DNA of 64,000 bases. It comes from a virus. Lineage: Duplodnaviria > Caudoviricetes. Location of the stretch: positions 32,001 to 96,000 of IMG/VR virus record IMGVR_UViG_3300033070_001497. One strand, written 5' to 3'. Positions 32 through 62,262 of the stretch are shown piece by piece (position 1 is the stretch's first letter; the number at the start of each line of letters is the position of its first letter). The position numbers were made by a program, and so were the translations under genes. The notes under the pieces are model-generated. The model was given only the letters and a program-made list of their open reading frames with translations, was not told the origin of the DNA and did no database searches.

Positions 32-430
32 ATGAGGAAATCAAGCGGAGTGAGAATCGGTAGCGAATGGGATGCGATCATCCTCAGGCCTATCATGATC
101 GGATGGAACGTCGAAGAACAGATCACGAATTCCAGGACGTCGACGACGACCTTCGTGAAGATGGGCAAGATCCACCACAGGGCCGAGCCGTCGAAGATCT
201 ACATCACGTTCTACGAGTTCAACAGGCGCACCATGCCCAGCGAACCGAGGTTCCGAGTGAAAGCTGGCAGGAACGTGCAGCCATGTGAGGGTCTCCACTC
301 TTTCAACGACCTGAAATCGGCCACTGACTACATCACGTACCTGGCCGATTCGACAGATCGTTGGATCGAGAAAGTGAACTCCGACGAGACGGTCACCGCG
401 TACGAGAAACGATTCCCGCTCGAACAGTGA
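32..430 (+). CDS. hypothetical protein (frame is open to the window edge, so the true start is uncertain)
   Basis: Genome-typical codon usage; its TGA overlaps the GTG start of the next gene (GTGA at 427-430). Confidence 0.65.
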   Translation: MRKSSGVRIGSEWDAIILRPIMIGWNVEEQITNSRTSTTTFVKMGKIHHRAEPSKIYITFYEFNRRTMPSEPRFRVKAGRNVQPCEGLHSFNDLKSATDYITYLADSTDRWIEKVNSDETVTAYEKRFPLEQ

Positions 431-864
431 TCATCTACCAAGGGACTCCACAGGGCCATAACGCATGGATCGCTGGCTTATTGGCCAGCGAGCTTGGGTG
501 CGAGCAGAGGAACATCGCTGATGGCCCAAAATGGGCGGCAGAGAACCCCAAGAGGGTGATCATGATCGTGCCGGAATGGAACGGATCCTTTCCATTCACG
601 TTCAAGCAGATGATCGATGAATCCGGGTACCCATCGTTCTTCAGTGGGATGGGATTCGCAATAGTAGGAACGTCGTCCTCGCCATTGGGCAACATGGTCG
701 GGATCTCACACCTGAGCCACATACTTCAGTTCGTTGGAGCGCTGCCGTTCCACAAGTGTATCGCGCTGCCTGACGTCAGCTCGGAATCGCCGAAGCTCGC
801 CAACTTCGCTTCCTACTCCGGTCAGACCCTGGCCGAGTCGCTCAAAAAGAGTTTCCTCGGATAG
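427..864 (+). CDS. NAD(P)H-dependent FMN reductase / flavodoxin-like protein
   Basis: IVPEWNGSFPFTFKQMID resembles the FMN_red motif PEYNGSxPxxLKNxxD. Start re-called at GTG 427 (coupled to the upstream stop) instead of 361. Confidence 0.7.
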   Translation: MIIYQGTPQGHNAWIAGLLASELGCEQRNIADGPKWAAENPKRVIMIVPEWNGSFPFTFKQMIDESGYPSFFSGMGFAIVGTSSSPLGNMVGISHLSHILQFVGALPFHKCIALPDVSSESPKLANFASYSGQTLAESLKKSFLG

Positions 865-2778: not shown

Positions 2779-3351
2779 TTGAAAGGGAAGAGAATCGTGA
2801 AGGTGTGGACCACTGCTGATCTGAAAATCATCAGGGACAACTGGAGAACGCAAACCGACGACGAGTTAGCGGTTGCGCTTGGAGTATCCTATAAAGCGCT
2901 ACAGGCTCAGAGGTTGCGGATCGGCATCAACAGGCCACCCAACTGTTCAGGCCTTGTCAGGGCCAAAATGGCTCCCAAGAAACCGTCACCTAAGAAGGGA
3001 AAGCCTTTCACTTCCACCAGAAAGGGGAGAAAGATGAGGATGATCAGCGTCTTCTATCCTGACGGAACGAAGAAGACCATGACCTATGGGAAGTACCTGT
3101 GGATCAGAGAGAATGGTCCGCTTTCGGAAGGCAAAGAGCTGATGTTCCTGGACGGAAACGCTCTCAACACGAAAATGAGCAACCTGGCTCCGATGACTCG
3201 CAGCGAGGGAGCCCGGTACACACAGCTCAGAAGATCCACTGAGGAGAGGAGAGCCGCAGCGGCAAGGATGGTGGCGAAGCAAAAAAAGGCTAAGATGCTA
3301 CGGCTGTATCTCGAACACAAGCCCTACGAGTTCAAAAGAGAAGCCGCTTGA
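2779..3351 (+). CDS. HNH-family endonuclease-like basic protein
   Basis: WIRENGPLSEGKELMFLDGNALNTKMSNL matches the phage HNH_3-like pattern; HTH-like N-terminus (WTTADL...DDELAVALGVS); TTG start. Confidence 0.65.
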   Translation: MKGKRIVKVWTTADLKIIRDNWRTQTDDELAVALGVSYKALQAQRLRIGINRPPNCSGLVRAKMAPKKPSPKKGKPFTSTRKGRKMRMISVFYPDGTKKTMTYGKYLWIRENGPLSEGKELMFLDGNALNTKMSNLAPMTRSEGARYTQLRRSTEERRAAAARMVAKQKKAKMLRLYLEHKPYEFKREAA

Positions 3352-3947: not shown

Positions 3948-4760
3948 ATGACACGGAGAAAATCCTTCAGTGGGGTCAGCTATGACCACCTCTACCATGA
4001 GATCCTGGACGAGATCGATCGCAATCCCGAGTACTCTGGCGAGGCCAGGGGCAAGGGCTTCAAGGAGATCAGCAACCTGTCCTTCGAGCTCCTGAACCCA
4101 GTCGACCACTACCAGGTCTTCAATCGAGAGAGGAACTTCAATCTCGGATTCGCCGAGAAGTTCTTCGCGTGGATGATGTCCGGCGATTCCGATATCACGA
4201 AGCTCACTGGGGTTAACCCGAACGCCAAGAACTACATGGCAGAAGGCGAGCTCCCAGACAACTTCAACACGGCGTATGGACCGAGGATAGTTCGCCAGCT
4301 CCCAAGGGTCATCCAGCTCCTGAAAGAGGACCCAGGGACCAGGAGGGCAGTGATCCACATCCTCGAGGAAGGCGACAAGGTGATCTGGGACGTGGAGACC
4401 AAGCTCGAATACCCTTGCACACACGCTTACCAGTTCATGATCAGGGATGGGGCCCTCAACCTCTATGTCCTGATGCGATCGAACAACATGGTCCTGACCG
4501 TGTGCTACGATGTGTGGAATACGGCCAAGCTGCTGCAACACGTCGCGAAGGAGGTTGGTGTCGATGTGGGCACGCTCAACTTCAATTGCACGTCGGCCCA
4601 CTTCTTCTCTGACGAACAGGAGCTCGTGACGAAGGTCCTGCGATCATGGCGAGCTGAACAAAAATACTACGGTGTACAGGCCGAAAGGCTGGCAGCTGAC
4701 ATAGATTCCCAGATCCTTTCTGACATGCTTAAAGAAATCCAAGACGAAACCCAACAATGA
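3948..4760 (+). CDS. thymidylate synthase-fold nucleotide-modifying enzyme (dCMP hydroxymethylase-like, atypical)
   Basis: AYGPRI, DPGTRRAV, catalytic YPC, QFMIRDG, MRSN, SAHFF. Asp at the TS Asn177-equivalent position (RSNNMVLTVCYD) points to dCMP specificity. Confidence 0.85.
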   Translation: MTRRKSFSGVSYDHLYHEILDEIDRNPEYSGEARGKGFKEISNLSFELLNPVDHYQVFNRERNFNLGFAEKFFAWMMSGDSDITKLTGVNPNAKNYMAEGELPDNFNTAYGPRIVRQLPRVIQLLKEDPGTRRAVIHILEEGDKVIWDVETKLEYPCTHAYQFMIRDGALNLYVLMRSNNMVLTVCYDVWNTAKLLQHVAKEVGVDVGTLNFNCTSAHFFSDEQELVTKVLRSWRAEQKYYGVQAERLAADIDSQILSDMLKEIQDETQQ

Positions 4761-6049
4761 AGATCTTCTACGCTGTCCAGATGTCCAACTTCACGTTGGA
4801 CAACGGCACTCCCAAGTGGCTCATGCGCAACGATGCTTGTGTCAACATCTGTGTCGGCATCGTCTCGACGCTGCTCGAGCGGTACCCAGACTTCAGCTTT
4901 CTCATCAAGCTGCCACCGGCAGCTGATACCTCCGATGTGAAGAACCTCGATGACCTGTTCGAGGCAAAATACCTCAGCAGGATCGAGTTCTATCGGGAGA
5001 CGATCCCAGTCTCGCCGGTCACGAGCAGGTTCAACTTTGACTTCGGCTTCCACCAGAAGCACGCAACCGAGTTCAAGGACGTGGACGTGATGATCAATGA
5101 CGAGAACACTCTCGCGAAGAACTGGCGACACTTCTTCAAGTCCATCGGCAAGGACATCCCGATGGTGACTACCAACTACTTCCTAGACTCGCCGATCCTA
5201 CCGAAGAGCGAGTTCAAGCTCAGGTACTATGAGCGCCAGGTGGAGTCCATGTTCTGCTCAGAAGCGTTTGCGTTCCCAGTCGAGGCAGCTATGAAGGATG
5301 CTCTCGAGGCCATCGATCTCCTCTATCGGAACAGGGATGGCATGGGCAAGCCCTTGGTCTGGGGAATCGGCGCTTACTACGGTGAGGTGGCGAAGTACCA
5401 CTCACCAAAGAGGAAGGAGCGTCCCATCATCTACTTCGGCAACAGGATCACGGATTCCGTCAACCGGTACACGAACTGGCACTCGTTCGCTGAGGCTATC
5501 GGTAAGCTCTCCGAACTAGTCGATCCGAGCACGTTCGAGGCGGTGATGCTCAACCCAACCAGGAAGGCCACGAACTCACAGCTGAAGGAGATCAACTACC
5601 TCTCGAAGGGACATGTCAGGGTCATCTCCAACGAAGACGCTGGGTTCACACGAGAGCAGTACCTCAAGTTCATCAACGAGGCCAGCATCTCGTGCAACAT
5701 CTTCACAGGCGAGGTCCATGGCGGGTGCACACACATCGAGGCGATGATGGCTCGCAACATCATGGTGGCTCCAGCGATCAACGACTACCTCCATAAGTAC
5801 AAGGACAGCGGTAAGCTCGATGGTTACCCATTCCTGTTCGAGTGCGATGGGAAGACGATCGACACCGATCTCATGGCACAGAAGCTCCAATTGGCGCTCG
5901 AGGTGGTCAATACTGACGGCGCAAGCACATTACCGTTCTTCGGCCAACTGAACGAGAAGCTCGCGATCGAGTACGAGTCCTATGAGCGCTTCGCTGAGAA
6001 GATCGGTCAGGATTTGTTAGATTTGGTGCCAATGAAAGCGTTGGCCTGA
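4757..6049 (+). CDS. putative GT-B fold glycosyltransferase
   Basis: Two Rossmann-like halves; IIYFGNRI, REQYLKFI and GGCTHIEAMMARNIMVAP resemble the C-terminal sugar-nucleotide-binding region of GT-B enzymes; ATGA-coupled to the TS homologue. Confidence 0.65.
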   Translation: MKIFYAVQMSNFTLDNGTPKWLMRNDACVNICVGIVSTLLERYPDFSFLIKLPPAADTSDVKNLDDLFEAKYLSRIEFYRETIPVSPVTSRFNFDFGFHQKHATEFKDVDVMINDENTLAKNWRHFFKSIGKDIPMVTTNYFLDSPILPKSEFKLRYYERQVESMFCSEAFAFPVEAAMKDALEAIDLLYRNRDGMGKPLVWGIGAYYGEVAKYHSPKRKERPIIYFGNRITDSVNRYTNWHSFAEAIGKLSELVDPSTFEAVMLNPTRKATNSQLKEINYLSKGHVRVISNEDAGFTREQYLKFINEASISCNIFTGEVHGGCTHIEAMMARNIMVAPAINDYLHKYKDSGKLDGYPFLFECDGKTIDTDLMAQKLQLALEVVNTDGASTLPFFGQLNEKLAIEYESYERFAEKIGQDLLDLVPMKALA

Positions 6050-6564
6050 TGGCAAGGATCATCATACTCGACGGTCCTAGCAGGACCGGTAAGAGCACGA
6101 TCACAGATTACCTGTGCAACACCTTCGGGTGGAAGCACGTTCAGATCGAGGAGCGTAGGCCTAAGGGCTACGACCTGAGGTCATTCTACAAGGGCATCTG
6201 GGACGCGACGGTGTCCGTGCTGAACCAGTTCAACGACGAGACGTTCGTGATGGACAGGTTCATCTTCACTGAGCTGGCCTATGCCAAGGTCCTCAACCGT
6301 GAACCTTGCATCACAAGGGATGATGTCTTGGGCGTGCTCATCAACCACGAAGTCAAGGTGTTCTACCTGACCAACACGTACGACGAGTACAGGCAACGCT
6401 CGCCCAAGGAAGGCTACACCAGGAAACAGCACGACGACCTGCTGAAAGCGTTCGAGGACCTGTTCTTCGAGTTCAACGTGGAGCCGATAAGGATAGCGAC
6501 TTCTGGGGTTGGCATCGACCAAATTCGGGAGCGCATAGAAGACGAACTTGTAGCAAGCGAATGA
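6049..6564 (+). CDS. deoxynucleoside monophosphate kinase (thymidylate kinase-like)
   Basis: P-loop IILDGPSRTGKST and VMDRFIFTELAY (DRxxxSxxAY-like) motif. Confidence 0.85.
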   Translation: MARIIILDGPSRTGKSTITDYLCNTFGWKHVQIEERRPKGYDLRSFYKGIWDATVSVLNQFNDETFVMDRFIFTELAYAKVLNREPCITRDDVLGVLINHEVKVFYLTNTYDEYRQRSPKEGYTRKQHDDLLKAFEDLFFEFNVEPIRIATSGVGIDQIRERIEDELVASE

Positions 6565-6971
6565 GAGCAACGATCATCTATGGAGCGGATGTGCCAGGAA
6601 TCGGCATGTCGATGGTAAGGAACGCCATTTCCCGTGGCAGCTACGTCTTTGGCATCCAAGGGTTGGAGAACCCAGAGCCGATCATCGACGATGAGAACTA
6701 CAACTGCCTTAGCATCGAGCTCGATGATACCGAGACGATGATCCATGCCATGAAATCGATCTGCGATGATGCATCGGTCAAGGTGGAAGAGGTAGTCTAC
6801 GTCGAGACTGGCAAACCGATGGCAGACAACGCTCTCAAGGCGATCTTCAAGAGCTACTGCGACTCTTACCTCGAAGGAGCGGCATTCTTGGACTCTTCAC
6901 ACCCAATCGCTAGGGCGCATGGCGATCCTGTCGGTCTAACAGGGCCAAATGGCCCTTCTGGCAAGGAGTAG
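6561..6971 (+). CDS. hypothetical protein with truncated SDR-like Rossmann N-terminus
   Basis: ATIIYGADVPGIGMSMVRNAISRGSYVFG resembles SDR TGxxxGIG; only 136 aa. Confidence 0.55.
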   Translation: MRATIIYGADVPGIGMSMVRNAISRGSYVFGIQGLENPEPIIDDENYNCLSIELDDTETMIHAMKSICDDASVKVEEVVYVETGKPMADNALKAIFKSYCDSYLEGAAFLDSSHPIARAHGDPVGLTGPNGPSGKE

Positions 6972-7014: not shown

Positions 7015-7641
7015 ATGAACATCTTCGTACTCGATAGGAACGCGATCACCGCTGCTGAGCAGCACTGCGACAAACACGTCCGCAAGATGGTGATCGAGTC
7101 AGCCCAGATGCTGACCACTGCATACTACTTTGGCGCTGGGATCAAAAGCAACAAAGCGGCCGATGCCAGGCGTTCGGACATCCATGACATCTTCGGTGGT
7201 TTTCCACGAGTGGACGACCAGGGCAAGCCTCTCCCATACAGGATCAGCCACCCTGGGCACCCGTGCACCGTATGGACCAGCAAAAGCTTCAACAACTTCG
7301 CCTGGCACCTGCTCCTAGCATCGGCCCTTTCCGAGGAATTCCAGCGGCGTTGGGGCAAGGAGCACGCGGTCAAACCCATACTCGGCTGGATGGCTAAACA
7401 CCCGCCTCCGAGCTCATACGCGTTTGACGAAAGTTTCAACCTCACGCCCTTCGCACAGGCCATGCCAGAATGCTTCAGGGGCCCAGACCCAGTGGAGGCC
7501 TACCGGAGGCTATACCACCACAAAGCCTCGCTATTCGACGTCACATGGAAAGCTCCAAGCACAGCGCCAGATTGGTTCTCGTTTGGCGGTGTACATTCAG
7601 CTAAAGCTACGTTTGCCCTCTCTAACCGAGTTGACCCATGA
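7015..7641 (+). CDS. pyrimidine-dimer DNA glycosylase (DenV/endonuclease V-related family)
   Basis: MNIFVLD...HCDKHVRKMVIESAQML, HPGHPCTVW, TPFAQAMP and DPVEAYR are characteristic motifs. Confidence 0.85.
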   Translation: MNIFVLDRNAITAAEQHCDKHVRKMVIESAQMLTTAYYFGAGIKSNKAADARRSDIHDIFGGFPRVDDQGKPLPYRISHPGHPCTVWTSKSFNNFAWHLLLASALSEEFQRRWGKEHAVKPILGWMAKHPPPSSYAFDESFNLTPFAQAMPECFRGPDPVEAYRRLYHHKASLFDVTWKAPSTAPDWFSFGGVHSAKATFALSNRVDP

Positions 7642-8024
7642 TCATCCAAGAGGAGTTCGGCGACGACGCGTGGAAACTCCTCGTAGGTTGCATCCTGCTC
7701 AACCAGACCAGCAACGTGCAGGTAAGGAGAGTGATCTACTCGCTGTTCGACCGTTGGCCAACTCCTGAGGCGATGAGCAAAGCGGAACCTAAGGAATTGG
7801 CCGATCACATCAGGACGCTAGGGTTCTACAACCGAAGGGCCAAATCGTTGATCCGTTTCTCCACAGAATACATAGCGAAAGACTTCGAGACCGCATCAGA
7901 ATTGCATGCGATCGGGAAATACGGAGACGATTCATTCCAGATGTTCATCAGAGGCAATATGGAAGTGCAGCCGACGGATCGGATCCTTTCGGCTTGGCTC
8001 AAGGGAGAACCTATCCCACAATGA
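7638..8024 (+). CDS. HhH-GPD DNA glycosylase, MBD4-like catalytic domain
   Basis: WKLLVGCILLNQTS, WPTPE, LGFYNRRAKSL, LHAIGKYGDDS and final PTD, as in MBD4 glycosylase domains. Confidence 0.85.
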   Translation: MIIQEEFGDDAWKLLVGCILLNQTSNVQVRRVIYSLFDRWPTPEAMSKAEPKELADHIRTLGFYNRRAKSLIRFSTEYIAKDFETASELHAIGKYGDDSFQMFIRGNMEVQPTDRILSAWLKGEPIPQ

Positions 8025-8818: not shown

Positions 8819-9844
8819 ATGCACACGCACGTCTTCGACATCGATGACACCCTGGTTCTCACCGACGGTAAGATAAAGGTCGTCAACCCATTGAATGGGG
8901 TCAGGCTACTTTCGGCCAAGGAATTCACCAAGTACCAACAGCACCCTCACGATTCGTTCGACTTCTCCGAGTTCAACGACGTGGATAAGCTGATGAACGG
9001 CACGCTAGTGAAGGACGTGTGCATGATCATCAGGGATTGCCATGACGCTGGGGAACGGATAGCCGTGATCACCGCAAGGGAGCAGGTGTGGCAGATCGTG
9101 CACTTCCTGAAGGAACGTATTGGAGTGACTATTCCACCGGAGATGGTCCTTGCGGTCAACGAGAAGCCGCGGAGGTTCTTCGGCGACAACGTCCCAGAGA
9201 TGAAGAGGCAGGCCATCAAGCGCCTGATCGAGTCTGGATCATCCAAGATCGACTTCTACGACGATGATCCGATGAACCTAGAGCTGGCTGCGATCGAGTC
9301 TGCCAAGCACGGAATCCCATTCCGAGCCATCCATGTCGATGACAAGTGGCATCGAACTAGCCTTCCGAAGAGGAGGATCGATGAGAAGATCGATGGGTTC
9401 TCTGGCATCCTGAAGCTGATCACTGGGATGTCGAACGCATCCACTTCCAAGGTCGGCTGTCTTGCCCTGAACAAGGACTTTCGGAACATCGCCGCATTCG
9501 GTTGGAACGGTTCGTATTCAGGAGCGCCGACGAACCCAGAGACCGGGGCAGAGGAGGAGTCCCTCGAACCAGGCATGAGCGGATTCATCCACGCCGAGGT
9601 CAACATGATCGCCAAGTTCAGGGAGCCGGATCCACAGAACTACATCGTCCTGTGCAGCCTGTCCCCTTGTGCGATGTGCACGAAGATCCTGGTCAATTCA
9701 GGGTTCAAGATGGTGTACTGGATAGACACCTATAGGGAGACCAATCACCTCCGGATCTTCCAGGAATGTGGAGTCATGTGCGGAAACATCGATGACCTCA
9801 AGAACCGAATCAACGAGATCCAGGGCAAACCCGGTCATAGATAA
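8819..9844 (+). CDS. fusion of HAD-superfamily phosphatase and dCMP deaminase
   Basis: N-terminal HVFDIDDTL, ITAR, K and FYDDD (HAD motifs I-IV); C-terminal KVGC, GWNG, HAEVN and SPCAMC (zinc deaminase). Confidence 0.85.
   Translation: MHTHVFDIDDTLVLTDGKIKVVNPLNGVRLLSAKEFTKYQQHPHDSFDFSEFNDVDKLMNGTLVKDVCMIIRDCHDAGERIAVITAREQVWQIVHFLKERIGVTIPPEMVLAVNEKPRRFFGDNVPEMKRQAIKRLIESGSSKIDFYDDDPMNLELAAIESAKHGIPFRAIHVDDKWHRTSLPKRRIDEKIDGFSGILKLITGMSNASTSKVGCLALNKDFRNIAAFGWNGSYSGAPTNPETGAEEESLEPGMSGFIHAEVNMIAKFREPDPQNYIVLCSLSPCAMCTKILVNSGFKMVYWIDTYRETNHLRIFQECGVMCGNIDDLKNRINEIQGKPGHR
9837..9843 (+). promoter_or_regulatory. putative late promoter ATAGATA
   Basis: Recurrent motif, 4 nt before ATG 9848. 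Confidence 0.65.
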
Positions 9845-10377: not shown

Positions 10378-13093
<2,716 letters not shown>

Positions 13094-61019: not shown

Positions 61020-61232
61020 ATGAAGTTGAAGCAGCTAAATACTCGAAAAAGCTGGCGTTCAGTCTTGCTTGGGTTCGCCGTGTTTTGCAATCCGTTCGGA
61101 TTCGACGTAGCCTTTTCTTTGGTGATGAAGATGACCGGATCCTATTGGATCACGGATGCAATCTTCTACGGCCTCTCCCTTATGTTTTTTGGCTTGTATT
61201 ACTGGTATGGTCGAGATTCCAATAAGGCGTGA
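61020..61232 (+). CDS. small two-TM membrane protein
   Basis: VLLGFAVFCNPFGFDVAFSLVMKMTGSYWITDAIFYGLSLMFFGLYY; start re-called at ATG 61020. Confidence 0.65.
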   Translation: MKLKQLNTRKSWRSVLLGFAVFCNPFGFDVAFSLVMKMTGSYWITDAIFYGLSLMFFGLYYWYGRDSNKA

Positions 61233-61809
61233 CTGTTGCGTCTACTTTCATATCGTAACGATCGGCAATCAACCGGTAGTTTTCTACGTTGGACAGGGTC
61301 TTAGTGATCGGCCTCATTTTTCAAGAAGGAATCGTTTCTGGCACAACTTCGTCAATAAGCACGGTCCGTACGAGGTTATCATCGATCAAGATGGGTTGAC
61401 TCATGAGGAAGCATGTGAATTAGAGCGCAAGTGGATTGCTTGGTTTGGCAGACGAGATCTTAAGCAAGGCACCCTCGTAAATCTGACGGATGGCGGAGAT
61501 GGCCCATTTGGATACAAGAGGATCCATTCTGCCGAAACGAAGCGAAAGATCTCTTTGGGTTTGATGGGTAAACAACCCAGTGATCAGGCTAGAGCTAAAA
61601 TGTCAGCCTCGAGGCGAGGTAAGAAGCTGTCGCTGAAACACATTGAAGCATGCAAAGCTGGATTCGCTAAGAGTTGGGCTTCTGGGAAGCGTAAGAAACC
61701 AACAATCTCTGATGACGAGAAAGCCAAAAGATCAGCCAGAATGCGGGCTGTCAATGAATCCGGCCGAAATGGACATCACAACACCAGACGCAACTTGAGG
61801 TTGTCATAG
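61207..61809 (+). mobile_element. free-standing GIY-YIG homing endonuclease with NUMOD3 repeats
   Basis: VYFH...FYVGQG...R, ELERKWIAWFGR, LVNLTDGGDG, HSAETKRKIS / PSDQARAKMS; AT-richer codon usage; start re-called at ATG 61207. Confidence 0.85.
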
Positions 61810-61818
61810 AAGGAGCGC

Positions 61819-62262
61819 ATGAAATTCCTCAAGACACGGGACGTTAAGAGTCCCAACCGTGGCACAAGCCACAGCGCAGGCATCGATCTCTTTGTGCCCA
61901 ATGATTTCGATCGAGTTACATTGAATCCTGGTCAGCGGATCAACATTCCATCCGGAATCAAAATGAATGTTCCGGAGAATCACGCTTTGGTTGCATTCAA
62001 CAAATCCGGAGTAGCTACCAAAAAGGGATTGGTAGTTGGAGCCTGTGTGATCGATTCTGATTACACAGGCGAAATCGGACTCCATGTGATCAATTCTGGA
62101 GTTGATTCTGTGACAATTGAGCCTGGAGATAAGCTTCTTCAGGTTCTGTTGCTTCCGATCCACATGGTCGAATTGGAAGAGTGCCATTCAGCAGAAGAAG
62201 TGTTCATGAACAAACAAACAGAGCGAGGAGAAGGAGGATATGGGTCGACTGGAGACAAATAA
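61819..62262 (+). CDS. dut: dUTPase (trimeric)
   Basis: SAGIDL, KSG, VIDSDYTGEI, GDKLLQ and RGEGGYGSTG (motifs I-V). Confidence 0.95.
   Translation: MKFLKTRDVKSPNRGTSHSAGIDLFVPNDFDRVTLNPGQRINIPSGIKMNVPENHALVAFNKSGVATKKGLVVGACVIDSDYTGEIGLHVINSGVDSVTIEPGDKLLQVLLLPIHMVELEECHSAEEVFMNKQTERGEGGYGSTGDK

Follow-up and report, generated by a model that had tools for sequence, protein, structure and literature searches.

RB69 gp48 and DLP3 gp80 are phage enzymes that convert deoxycytidine monophosphate (dCMP) to 5-hydroxy-dCMP (5hodCMP) with oxygen from O2, and flavin co-purifies with them (Lee et al. NAR 2026, PMC13326640). An Asn at the position of Asp169 in Escherichia coli ThyA (D169N) is diagnostic for a 5hodCMP synthase, further criteria being Asp in place of Asn177 and an acidic side chain where ThyA has Leu143, and all further D169N homologues tested, which were chosen for diversity and included IMG/VR sequences and Rhizobium phage RL38JI, gave 5-hydroxydeoxycytidine (5hodC) (PMC13326640). 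By locus number, the hydroxylase, transferase and kinase of RL38JI are gp216, gp215 and gp214 (Lee et al. NAR 2026, PMC13326640). As cited in PMC13326640, the flavin-bound HY126 structure is credited to He et al. (Nat Chem Biol 2026). Here we describe a related locus in a stretch of 64,000 nucleotides (the window), which has a GC content of ~54% and comprises bases 32001-96000 of a 109,314-bp IMG/VR virus record with a CheckV completeness of ~38%. It carries coupled genes for a thymidylate synthase (TS)-fold protein (P0001, 3948-4760), a GT-B glycosyltransferase (P0002, 4757-6049) and a P-loop nucleotide kinase (P0003, 6049-6564), all on the + strand. With the chemistry taken from the verified family members, these three genes very probably constitute a module for 5-hydroxycytosine (5hoC) hypermodification of DNA.

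The source is an uncultivated large-phage lineage carrying the known three-gene 5hoC module, whose enzyme class, chemistry and organisation as a module were published in 2025-2026. By UvsW helicase the nearest record is a 462-kb metagenomic phage (51.5%), and a megablast search with the three module genes gave no match among 50,697 phage records. Residue counts given below refer to 62 viral relatives of P0001. Neighbourhood counts refer to 58 IMG/VR loci encoding P0001 relatives (numbered with the prefix L), for which stretches of up to 10 kb on either side of the TS homologue were used.

P0001 and the dCMP 5-hydroxylases

P0001 (270 aa) matches the Pfam family Thymidylat_synt (PF00303) with 60.2 bits (cut-off 24.3) and contains the motifs AEKFFAW (residues 69-75), YPC (155-157) and RSNN (177-180). 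To obtain residue equivalences, P0001 was aligned to E. coli ThyA and T4 gp42 using MAFFT, and an independent hmmalign alignment was in agreement. The catalytic Cys146 of ThyA corresponds to Cys157, which is invariant across all P0001 alignments, Trp61 corresponds to Trp75, and R166 and S167 are retained. In both alignments Asn177 is replaced by Asp188, while Leu143 is replaced by Glu154. Among the remaining positions Glu58 was found to be Phe72, Asp169 to be Asn180, Gly173 to be Thr184 and Tyr209 to be Phe220; the Trp80 and Trp83 positions are lost as well, the former being a Lys. This is in agreement with the first-pass annotation, which had recognised the catalytic Cys in YPC, had taken the Asp at the Asn177 position to indicate dCMP specificity, and had read Phe for Glu58, Asn for the Asp of RSxD and Thr for the Gly that follows. 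Its statement that the replaced residues act in folate binding and activation is right for ThyA. P0001 has probably lost the folate-handling residues because the cofactor has switched from folate to flavin.

The pattern is highly conserved among the relatives. The residue at the Asp169 position is invariantly Asn in a clade of 30 sequences and is Asn in 61 of the 62 viral relatives, and the full pattern (D169N, N177D, L143E, the Cys, E58F, G173V/T and Y209F) was found in 60 of the 62, including RB69 gp48 and the Acinetobacter phage DLP2 homologue of DLP3 gp80. A shifted register that would restore the missing Glu was also checked, and no conserved Glu was found hidden in P0001. In a HMMER pairwise alignment to MilA, E70 is placed onto the MilA Glu through a gap of two residues. 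Position 70 is Glu or Asp in only 47 of the 62 relatives, while Phe72 is Phe in 61, and for this lack of conservation at position 70 we rejected the shifted register.

Some other TS homologues deviate from this pattern. The hydroxylase-clade homologue at L020:9962-10675 has a Cys at the Asp169 position (RS.C) with its other signature residues intact. The homologues of L068 and L069, both from IMG/VR, have an Asp at the Asn177 position and retain Asp169, Gly173 and Tyr209. By their sequences these two look like ordinary dCMP hydroxymethylases, and they provide a contrast within the alignment.

P0001 was also compared to the established TS classes. A canonical folate-dependent ThyA was rejected on the residues at the key positions (F72, the Lys, N180, D188 and F220), and the best score against the NCBIfam ThyA equivalog was 64.5 bits, compared to a cut-off of 174.55. 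Judged as a hydroxymethylase of the T4 gp42 type, P0001 has the Cys and the Asp but carries Phe for Glu60 and Asn at the Asp169 equivalent.

The closest similarities were found to the dCMP hydroxylases. The identity between P0001 and RB69 gp48 amounts to 36% (E 4e-45), and the best sequence matches of P0001 in the PDB are 9iqu, 9iqc and 9ir2 (E 2.6e-36), followed by MilA (4.4e-21) and by ThyA entries at 1e-9 or weaker. The AlphaFold model (pLDDT 90.8) has 9iqc and 9iqu as the two highest ranking Foldseek matches, onto which it superimposes with a TM-score by target of 0.93-0.94 and a root mean square deviation (rmsd) of 1.2-1.4 Å. The PDB titles of these entries are 'Monooxygenase dependent on riboflavin with dCMP and FAD' (9iqc) and 'phage HY126 dCMP hydroxylase-AfhB' (9iqu), and a 71-residue stretch of their sequence is 100% identical to Mosigvirus coliphage enzymes. 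A maximum-likelihood tree places P0001 inside the D169N clade, which is split from T4 gp42 and ThyA at a support of 97/99. Altogether, sequence and model support the prediction that P0001 is a flavin- and O2-dependent dCMP 5-hydroxylase (5hodCMP synthase) of the AfhB / RB69 gp48 type.

P0001 and T4 gp42 have the TS fold, the Cys, the Asp at the Asn177 position and the acidic residue at the Leu143 position in common, many database records name T4-like relatives of P0001 'dCMP hydroxymethylase', and the glucosyltransferase gene of T4 adjoins gene 42. These similarities would fit with P0001 being a folate-dependent dCMP hydroxymethylase like gp42, in which case the product would be glycosylated 5-hydroxymethylcytosine. 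In the alignment with ThyA, however, T4 gp42 has retained the equivalents of Glu58, Trp80, Asp169, Gly173 and Tyr209, all of which P0001 has lost. The identity to gp42 is 19% compared to the 36% to RB69 gp48, the tree separates the two groups, and the best structural match is a dCMP hydroxylase. We find a hydroxymethylase hardly probable at all.

A different reaction at C5 of dCMP, with another donor and a chemically new base as the product, would be suggested by the divergence of P0001. The identity to the tested hydroxylases is only 33-36%, P0001 forms a branch of its own within the D169N clade together with the enzyme of L012, it has a Thr and not a Val at the Gly173 position, and it carries an extra C-terminal helix of ~40 residues which is absent from RB69 gp48. 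On the other hand, P0001 matches all signature positions, and every D169N homologue tested gave 5hodC (PMC13326640). Six loci (L013, L015, L016, L018, L019 and L042) that make up a neighbouring branch, for the most part uncharacterised, also have the Thr found at position 184 of P0001; among them a T4-like contig was seen for L013 alone. The flavin mononucleotide (FMN) reductase homologue encoded nearby fits with flavin chemistry. It is very unlikely that P0001 carries out such a different reaction, and hydroxylation is the reading that we follow below.

The first-pass annotation had proposed a non-canonical and possibly flavin-linked reaction at C5 of dCMP, such as hydroxylation, followed by phosphorylation and by glycosylation in DNA, and the sequence, fold and neighbourhood of P0001 support this proposal. 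It had also suggested an undescribed base. This does not hold for the 5-hydroxycytosine chemistry, which is already published, and the suggestion survives for the sugar only.

Gene coupling, the glycosyltransferase and the kinase

The genes of the module overlap by their start and stop codons, with the junctions ATGA (4757-4760) between P0001 and P0002, TGATG (6047-6051) between P0002 and P0003, and ATGA (6561-6564) at the end of P0003. The translational coupling of the TS-fold, GT-B and kinase genes, already noted in the first reading of the sequence, is real and extends to a fourth open reading frame (ORF; 6561-6971, + strand, 136 aa). The order of TS, glycosyltransferase (GT) and thymidylate kinase (Tmk)-like kinase is identical in RB69 (gp48, gp47:46 and gp45 along the transcribed strand), and ADLP2_044, ADLP2_045 and ADLP2_046 of phage DLP2 are arranged in the same way.

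P0002 (430 aa) is a GT4-like GT-B glycosyltransferase of the retaining type as judged from its model. No match to Pfam (including PF00534), PHROG or NCBIfam was found. The AF2 model (pLDDT 87.3) has two Rossmann-like halves that make up a full GT-B fold, and Foldseek matched it to GT4 enzymes with E values of about 1e-12. Using VIA-align the best superpositions were obtained with BshA 6d9t (Z 31.7, rmsd 2.8 Å, 349 residues aligned), BaBshA 3mbo (Z 31.1, 2.9 Å, 349 residues) and MshA 3c4q (Z 31.0, 3.1 Å, 365 residues), followed by 6kih (Z 30.2, 3.4 Å, 371 residues) and 7qsg (Z 30.2, 3.4 Å, 352 residues). These matches are retaining GT4-type enzymes, which suggests from the fold class that P0002 is likely to retain the configuration. 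The entries 3mbo, 3c4q, 6kih, 7qsg and 2gej are listed for the phage 5hoC transferases of RB69, DLP3 and RL38JI (PMC13326640), and the P0002 model matches the same five; among the nearest entries shared with these transferases is also 3c4v, a second MshA structure. Glu319 and Glu328 are invariant and are located in GEVHGGCTHIEA with the spacing EX8E, which is one residue more than in the EX7E donor-binding motif that the pair resembles.

The P0002 family comprises at least 158 metagenomic clusters with identities of 49-81%, on contigs of up to 226 kb. Both genes could be located in 11 loci, and in each of these the gene for the P0002 homologue starts no more than ~30 nucleotides from the end of the D169N TS gene or overlaps it. 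Compared to the predicted first 5hoC transferases (RB69 gp46:47, DLP3 gp79 and RL38JI gp215), P0002 has the same slot between hydroxylase and kinase and the same GT-B fold; it differs in being 430 aa long compared to ~300-314 aa and in belonging to a separate, well-conserved metagenomic family. From its position and fold we predict that P0002 is the first transferase to place a sugar onto 5hoC in DNA, which makes its family a candidate for a new family of DNA glycosyltransferases.

P0002 could instead act on an envelope component or a small molecule, so that the phage DNA would contain bare 5hoC or be glycosylated by an enzyme encoded elsewhere. In favour of this, P0002 does not resemble in sequence the one known DNA 5hoC transferase to which it was compared, its best fold matches are small-molecule and lipid GT4 enzymes such as BshA, MshA and PimA, and ~60% of the genome is missing from the record. 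Host repair of the endonuclease III type acts, however, on bare 5hoC, which would favour capping of the hydroxyl group. Furthermore, the P0002 gene overlaps both the stop codon of the hydroxylase gene and the start codon of the kinase gene, the family abuts the D169N TS gene in 11 of 11 loci, the predicted first DNA transferases of RB69, DLP2 and RL38JI occupy the same slot, and known phage DNA transferases match the same PDB entries. We regard an action of P0002 away from DNA as unlikely, and glycosylation of 5hoC in DNA as its predicted function.

In some relatives epimerase/dehydratase genes and a GT11-type transferase gene follow the P0002 homologue, which suggests that a second sugar is added there. 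Neither is found in the window or in its nearest relative, L012. Searches of the 109-kb record, which represents ~38% of the genome, with Glycos_transf_1, Glyco_tranf_2_4 and Epimerase found nothing, and this is weak evidence at such completeness. With P0002 as the only GT and no sugar gene found in the 109 kb, a single sugar from the host pool of nucleoside diphosphate (NDP)-sugars would be expected, probably from a UDP-hexose.

P0003 (171 aa) is a Tmk-like P-loop nucleotide kinase. It matches phrog_761, thymidylate kinase, with an E value of 1.3e-14, has the P-loop GPSRTGKST and is 26% identical to the DLP2-cluster kinase ADLP2_046 (E 9e-12), while a sequence search of the PDB gave no match. 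Hidden Markov model matches to P0003 were found in the same stretch as the TS homologue, usually within ~3 kb of it, in nearly all of the 58 loci. From its sequence we predict that P0003 is a 5hodCMP kinase.

Neighbouring genes

A homologue of NADPH-dependent FMN reductases is encoded at 361-864 (+ strand) by a 167-aa ORF with an uncertain TTG start. The gene lies two genes 5' of the module, ahead of genes for an NAD-dependent ligase and an HNH endonuclease; the endonuclease gene (2779-3351) is located between those of the ligase and the hydroxylase. The protein scores 26.1 bits against PF03358 (cut-off 24), a family which includes the SsuE-type reductase components of two-component monooxygenases. 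The profile of its own family matches YhdA 3gfq (E 1e-10), 4hs4 (1.4e-9) and the FMN reductase 3u7r (7e-9), with ChrR included among the matches, and the core motif PEWNGS-P..K..ID is conserved in the family. Compared to FMN reductases of the SsuE, YhdA and ChrR types it is phage-encoded, short (~150 aa) and divergent.

The reductase gene was found upstream of the module in L010, L012, L032, L034, L050, L066 and L067, and every relative with a P0002-type GT has it at this place. It is also present beside D169N enzymes in L040 and L062, both of which are without a P0002-type GT, and is directly adjacent to the TS gene in L062. It is kept beside two different hydroxylase subclades, one with the enzymes of the window and L012 and the other with those of the remaining reductase-bearing phages. 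In cousins with a GT that is 60% identical to that of the window, the TS homologue is only 32-34% identical. A differing hydroxylase subclade together with a similar GT suggests, from the sequences, that the hydroxylase gene was replaced within a conserved neighbourhood, and the reductase gene would have persisted through this swap. The reductase homologue probably supplies reduced flavin to the hydroxylase, which we propose as a candidate role. A literature search that did not extend to He et al. found no description of a reductase partnering a TS-fold hydroxylase.

Immediately 3' of the kinase gene, the fourth coupled ORF (6561-6971) may encode a truncated Rossmann or short-chain dehydrogenase/reductase (SDR)-like domain. 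Its product shares 40% identity with that of the equivalently placed ORF of L012. Atlas points to the N-terminal Rossmann halves of SDR/epimerase proteins (score 0.90, TM 0.70-0.75), which we take as a lead only. In relatives, complete epimerase/dehydratase genes occupy roughly the position of this ORF, but a comparison of its product with the full-length L010 epimerase showed no similarity.

Further downstream an HhH-GPD mismatch DNA glycosylase of the MBD4 type is encoded at 7638-8024 (+ strand, 128 aa). It matches MBD4 glycosylase domains with an E value of 2e-23, and the catalytic Asp motif GKYG-DDS is intact. The gene is conserved 3' of the module in relatives, and the homologues from isolated phages are mostly found in Xp12-like Xanthomonas phages. 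In Xp12 DNA cytosine is replaced by 5-methylcytosine. It is a reasonable inference that the protein removes deaminated modified cytosine opposite G, and we propose this as a candidate role.

The ORF at 8819-9844 (+ strand, 341 aa) encodes an N-terminal domain of ~200 residues resembling haloacid dehalogenase (HAD)/polynucleotide kinase (PNK) phosphatases, fused to a dCMP deaminase (PF00383 at residues 206-301; phrog_174 and phrog_415). Relatives have a stand-alone dCMP deaminase of ~158 aa at the same relative position. The protein is a nucleotide-pool enzyme with a presumed association with the module.

A few other genes of the record concern nucleotide metabolism and replication. A dihydrofolate reductase-like gene (PF00186, 29.1 bits) is located at L006:6972-7436 (genome 26972-27436). 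Neither a canonical ThyA nor ThyX was found in the 109 kb, and a folate-dependent thymidylate synthase may be encoded in the missing part of the genome. A dUTPase-family protein (window 61819-62262, 84 bits), which also has a weak dCTP-deaminase-like match, may clear dCTP or dUTP from the pool, and the record offers no second candidate for this role. The B-family DNA polymerase is apparently split over two consecutive ORFs (window coordinates 62650-64032 and 64029-66587), just 5' of which lies an ORF with a NUMOD3 motif (61156-61809, homing-endonuclease-like). Two large collagen-repeat proteins are encoded at window 10391-13093 and at L006:8196-10661 (- strand). The former matches tail-fibre PHROGs and opens the structural module directly after the nucleotide-metabolism block.

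Proposed pathway and comparison with known systems

In the pathway that we propose, Cys157 of P0001 would attack C6 of dCMP, with reduced flavin and O2 in place of methylene-tetrahydrofolate, and a hydroxyl group at C5 would yield 5-hydroxy-dCMP. The FMN reductase homologue (361-864) would be the probable source of the reduced flavin. P0003 would make the diphosphate, from which the host NDP kinase would make 5hodCTP for incorporation by the phage B-family polymerase. Once the base is in DNA, its 5-OH would be glycosylated by P0002, with an NDP-sugar as the donor that is probably a UDP-hexose of the host. Sequence and model comparisons directly show which families the proteins belong to, the signature residues, the matching folds and the conserved order of the genes. 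The parts of this pathway that we infer are what P0003 phosphorylates, that P0002 acts on DNA, which sugar it transfers, what the reductase homologue does and whether cytosine is replaced completely.

Several observations weigh against this pathway. P0001 is only 33-36% identical to any verified enzyme. The verified assays of the RB69 and DLP3 systems used a T4 gp1-type deoxynucleoside monophosphate kinase and not a Tmk-like one (PMC13326640). Only gene position and fold point to DNA as the acceptor of P0002. A comparison of the P0002 family to ADLP2_045 of DLP2, which corresponds in position to DLP3 gp79 and is the one known first transferase compared, gave an hhalign probability of 0.6 and no sequence similarity, and tblastn with P0002 at an E value of 1e-3 gave no match among the 50,697 phage records. 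In the 109 kb no further GT or sugar-nucleotide gene and no MazG or MazG-like dCTPase was found, which is weak evidence as the record represents ~38% of the genome. Neither RB69 nor DLP2 encodes a homologue of the reductase. The reductase gene travels with a phage lineage, so that its linkage to the module may reflect shared ancestry and not function.

The three parts that go beyond the published module can be joined in a reading which we offer tentatively and which is somewhat doubtful as a whole. The phage reductase and the TS scaffold would form a two-component monooxygenase, the unrelated GT would add a sugar other than arabinose and thereby create an undescribed base, and the MBD4-like glycosylase would remove the deaminated product. 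The GT family without sequence similarity to ADLP2_045, the nearby FMN reductase homologue and the MBD4-like glycosylase are not described in the literature covered, to which He et al. did not belong.

The pattern E58F, D169N, G173T/V and Y209F would mark a switch from folate to flavin in the TS superfamily and broadens the single diagnostic residue published. The predicted occurrence of glycosyl-5-hydroxycytosine DNA is extended from T4-like and Rhizobium phages to uncultivated large phages, on contigs of up to 294 kb. Three testable additions emerge, namely a putative new family of DNA glycosyltransferases with at least 158 clusters from metagenomes, a flavin reductase that may be dedicated to the hydroxylase, and a mismatch glycosylase that may be matched to the modification. 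DNA modifications of this kind decide whether phages escape restriction and CRISPR, and their enzymes are a source for making modified DNA.

Compared to RB69 gp48, DLP3 gp80 and AfhB, P0001 has the same TS fold, Cys, N177D, L143E, D169N, E58F and Y209F, and a GT and then a Tmk-like kinase follow in the same order. P0001 differs from these enzymes by the Thr instead of Val at the Gly173 position, by the extra C-terminal helix and by its separate branch. The phage of the window is neither a Straboviridae nor a Pootjesviridae isolate, and no arabinose-activation genes are present in the 109 kb. The T4 gp42 system follows the same logic, with a TS-fold enzyme acting on C5 of dCMP, a kinase, and a GT-B enzyme acting on a hydroxyl group in DNA, and the glucosyltransferase gene likewise adjoins gene 42. 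It differs in that gp42, to which P0001 is only 19% identical, is folate dependent. The sugar of T4 is carried on the hydroxymethyl group, whereas in the system of the window it would be attached directly to the ring oxygen.

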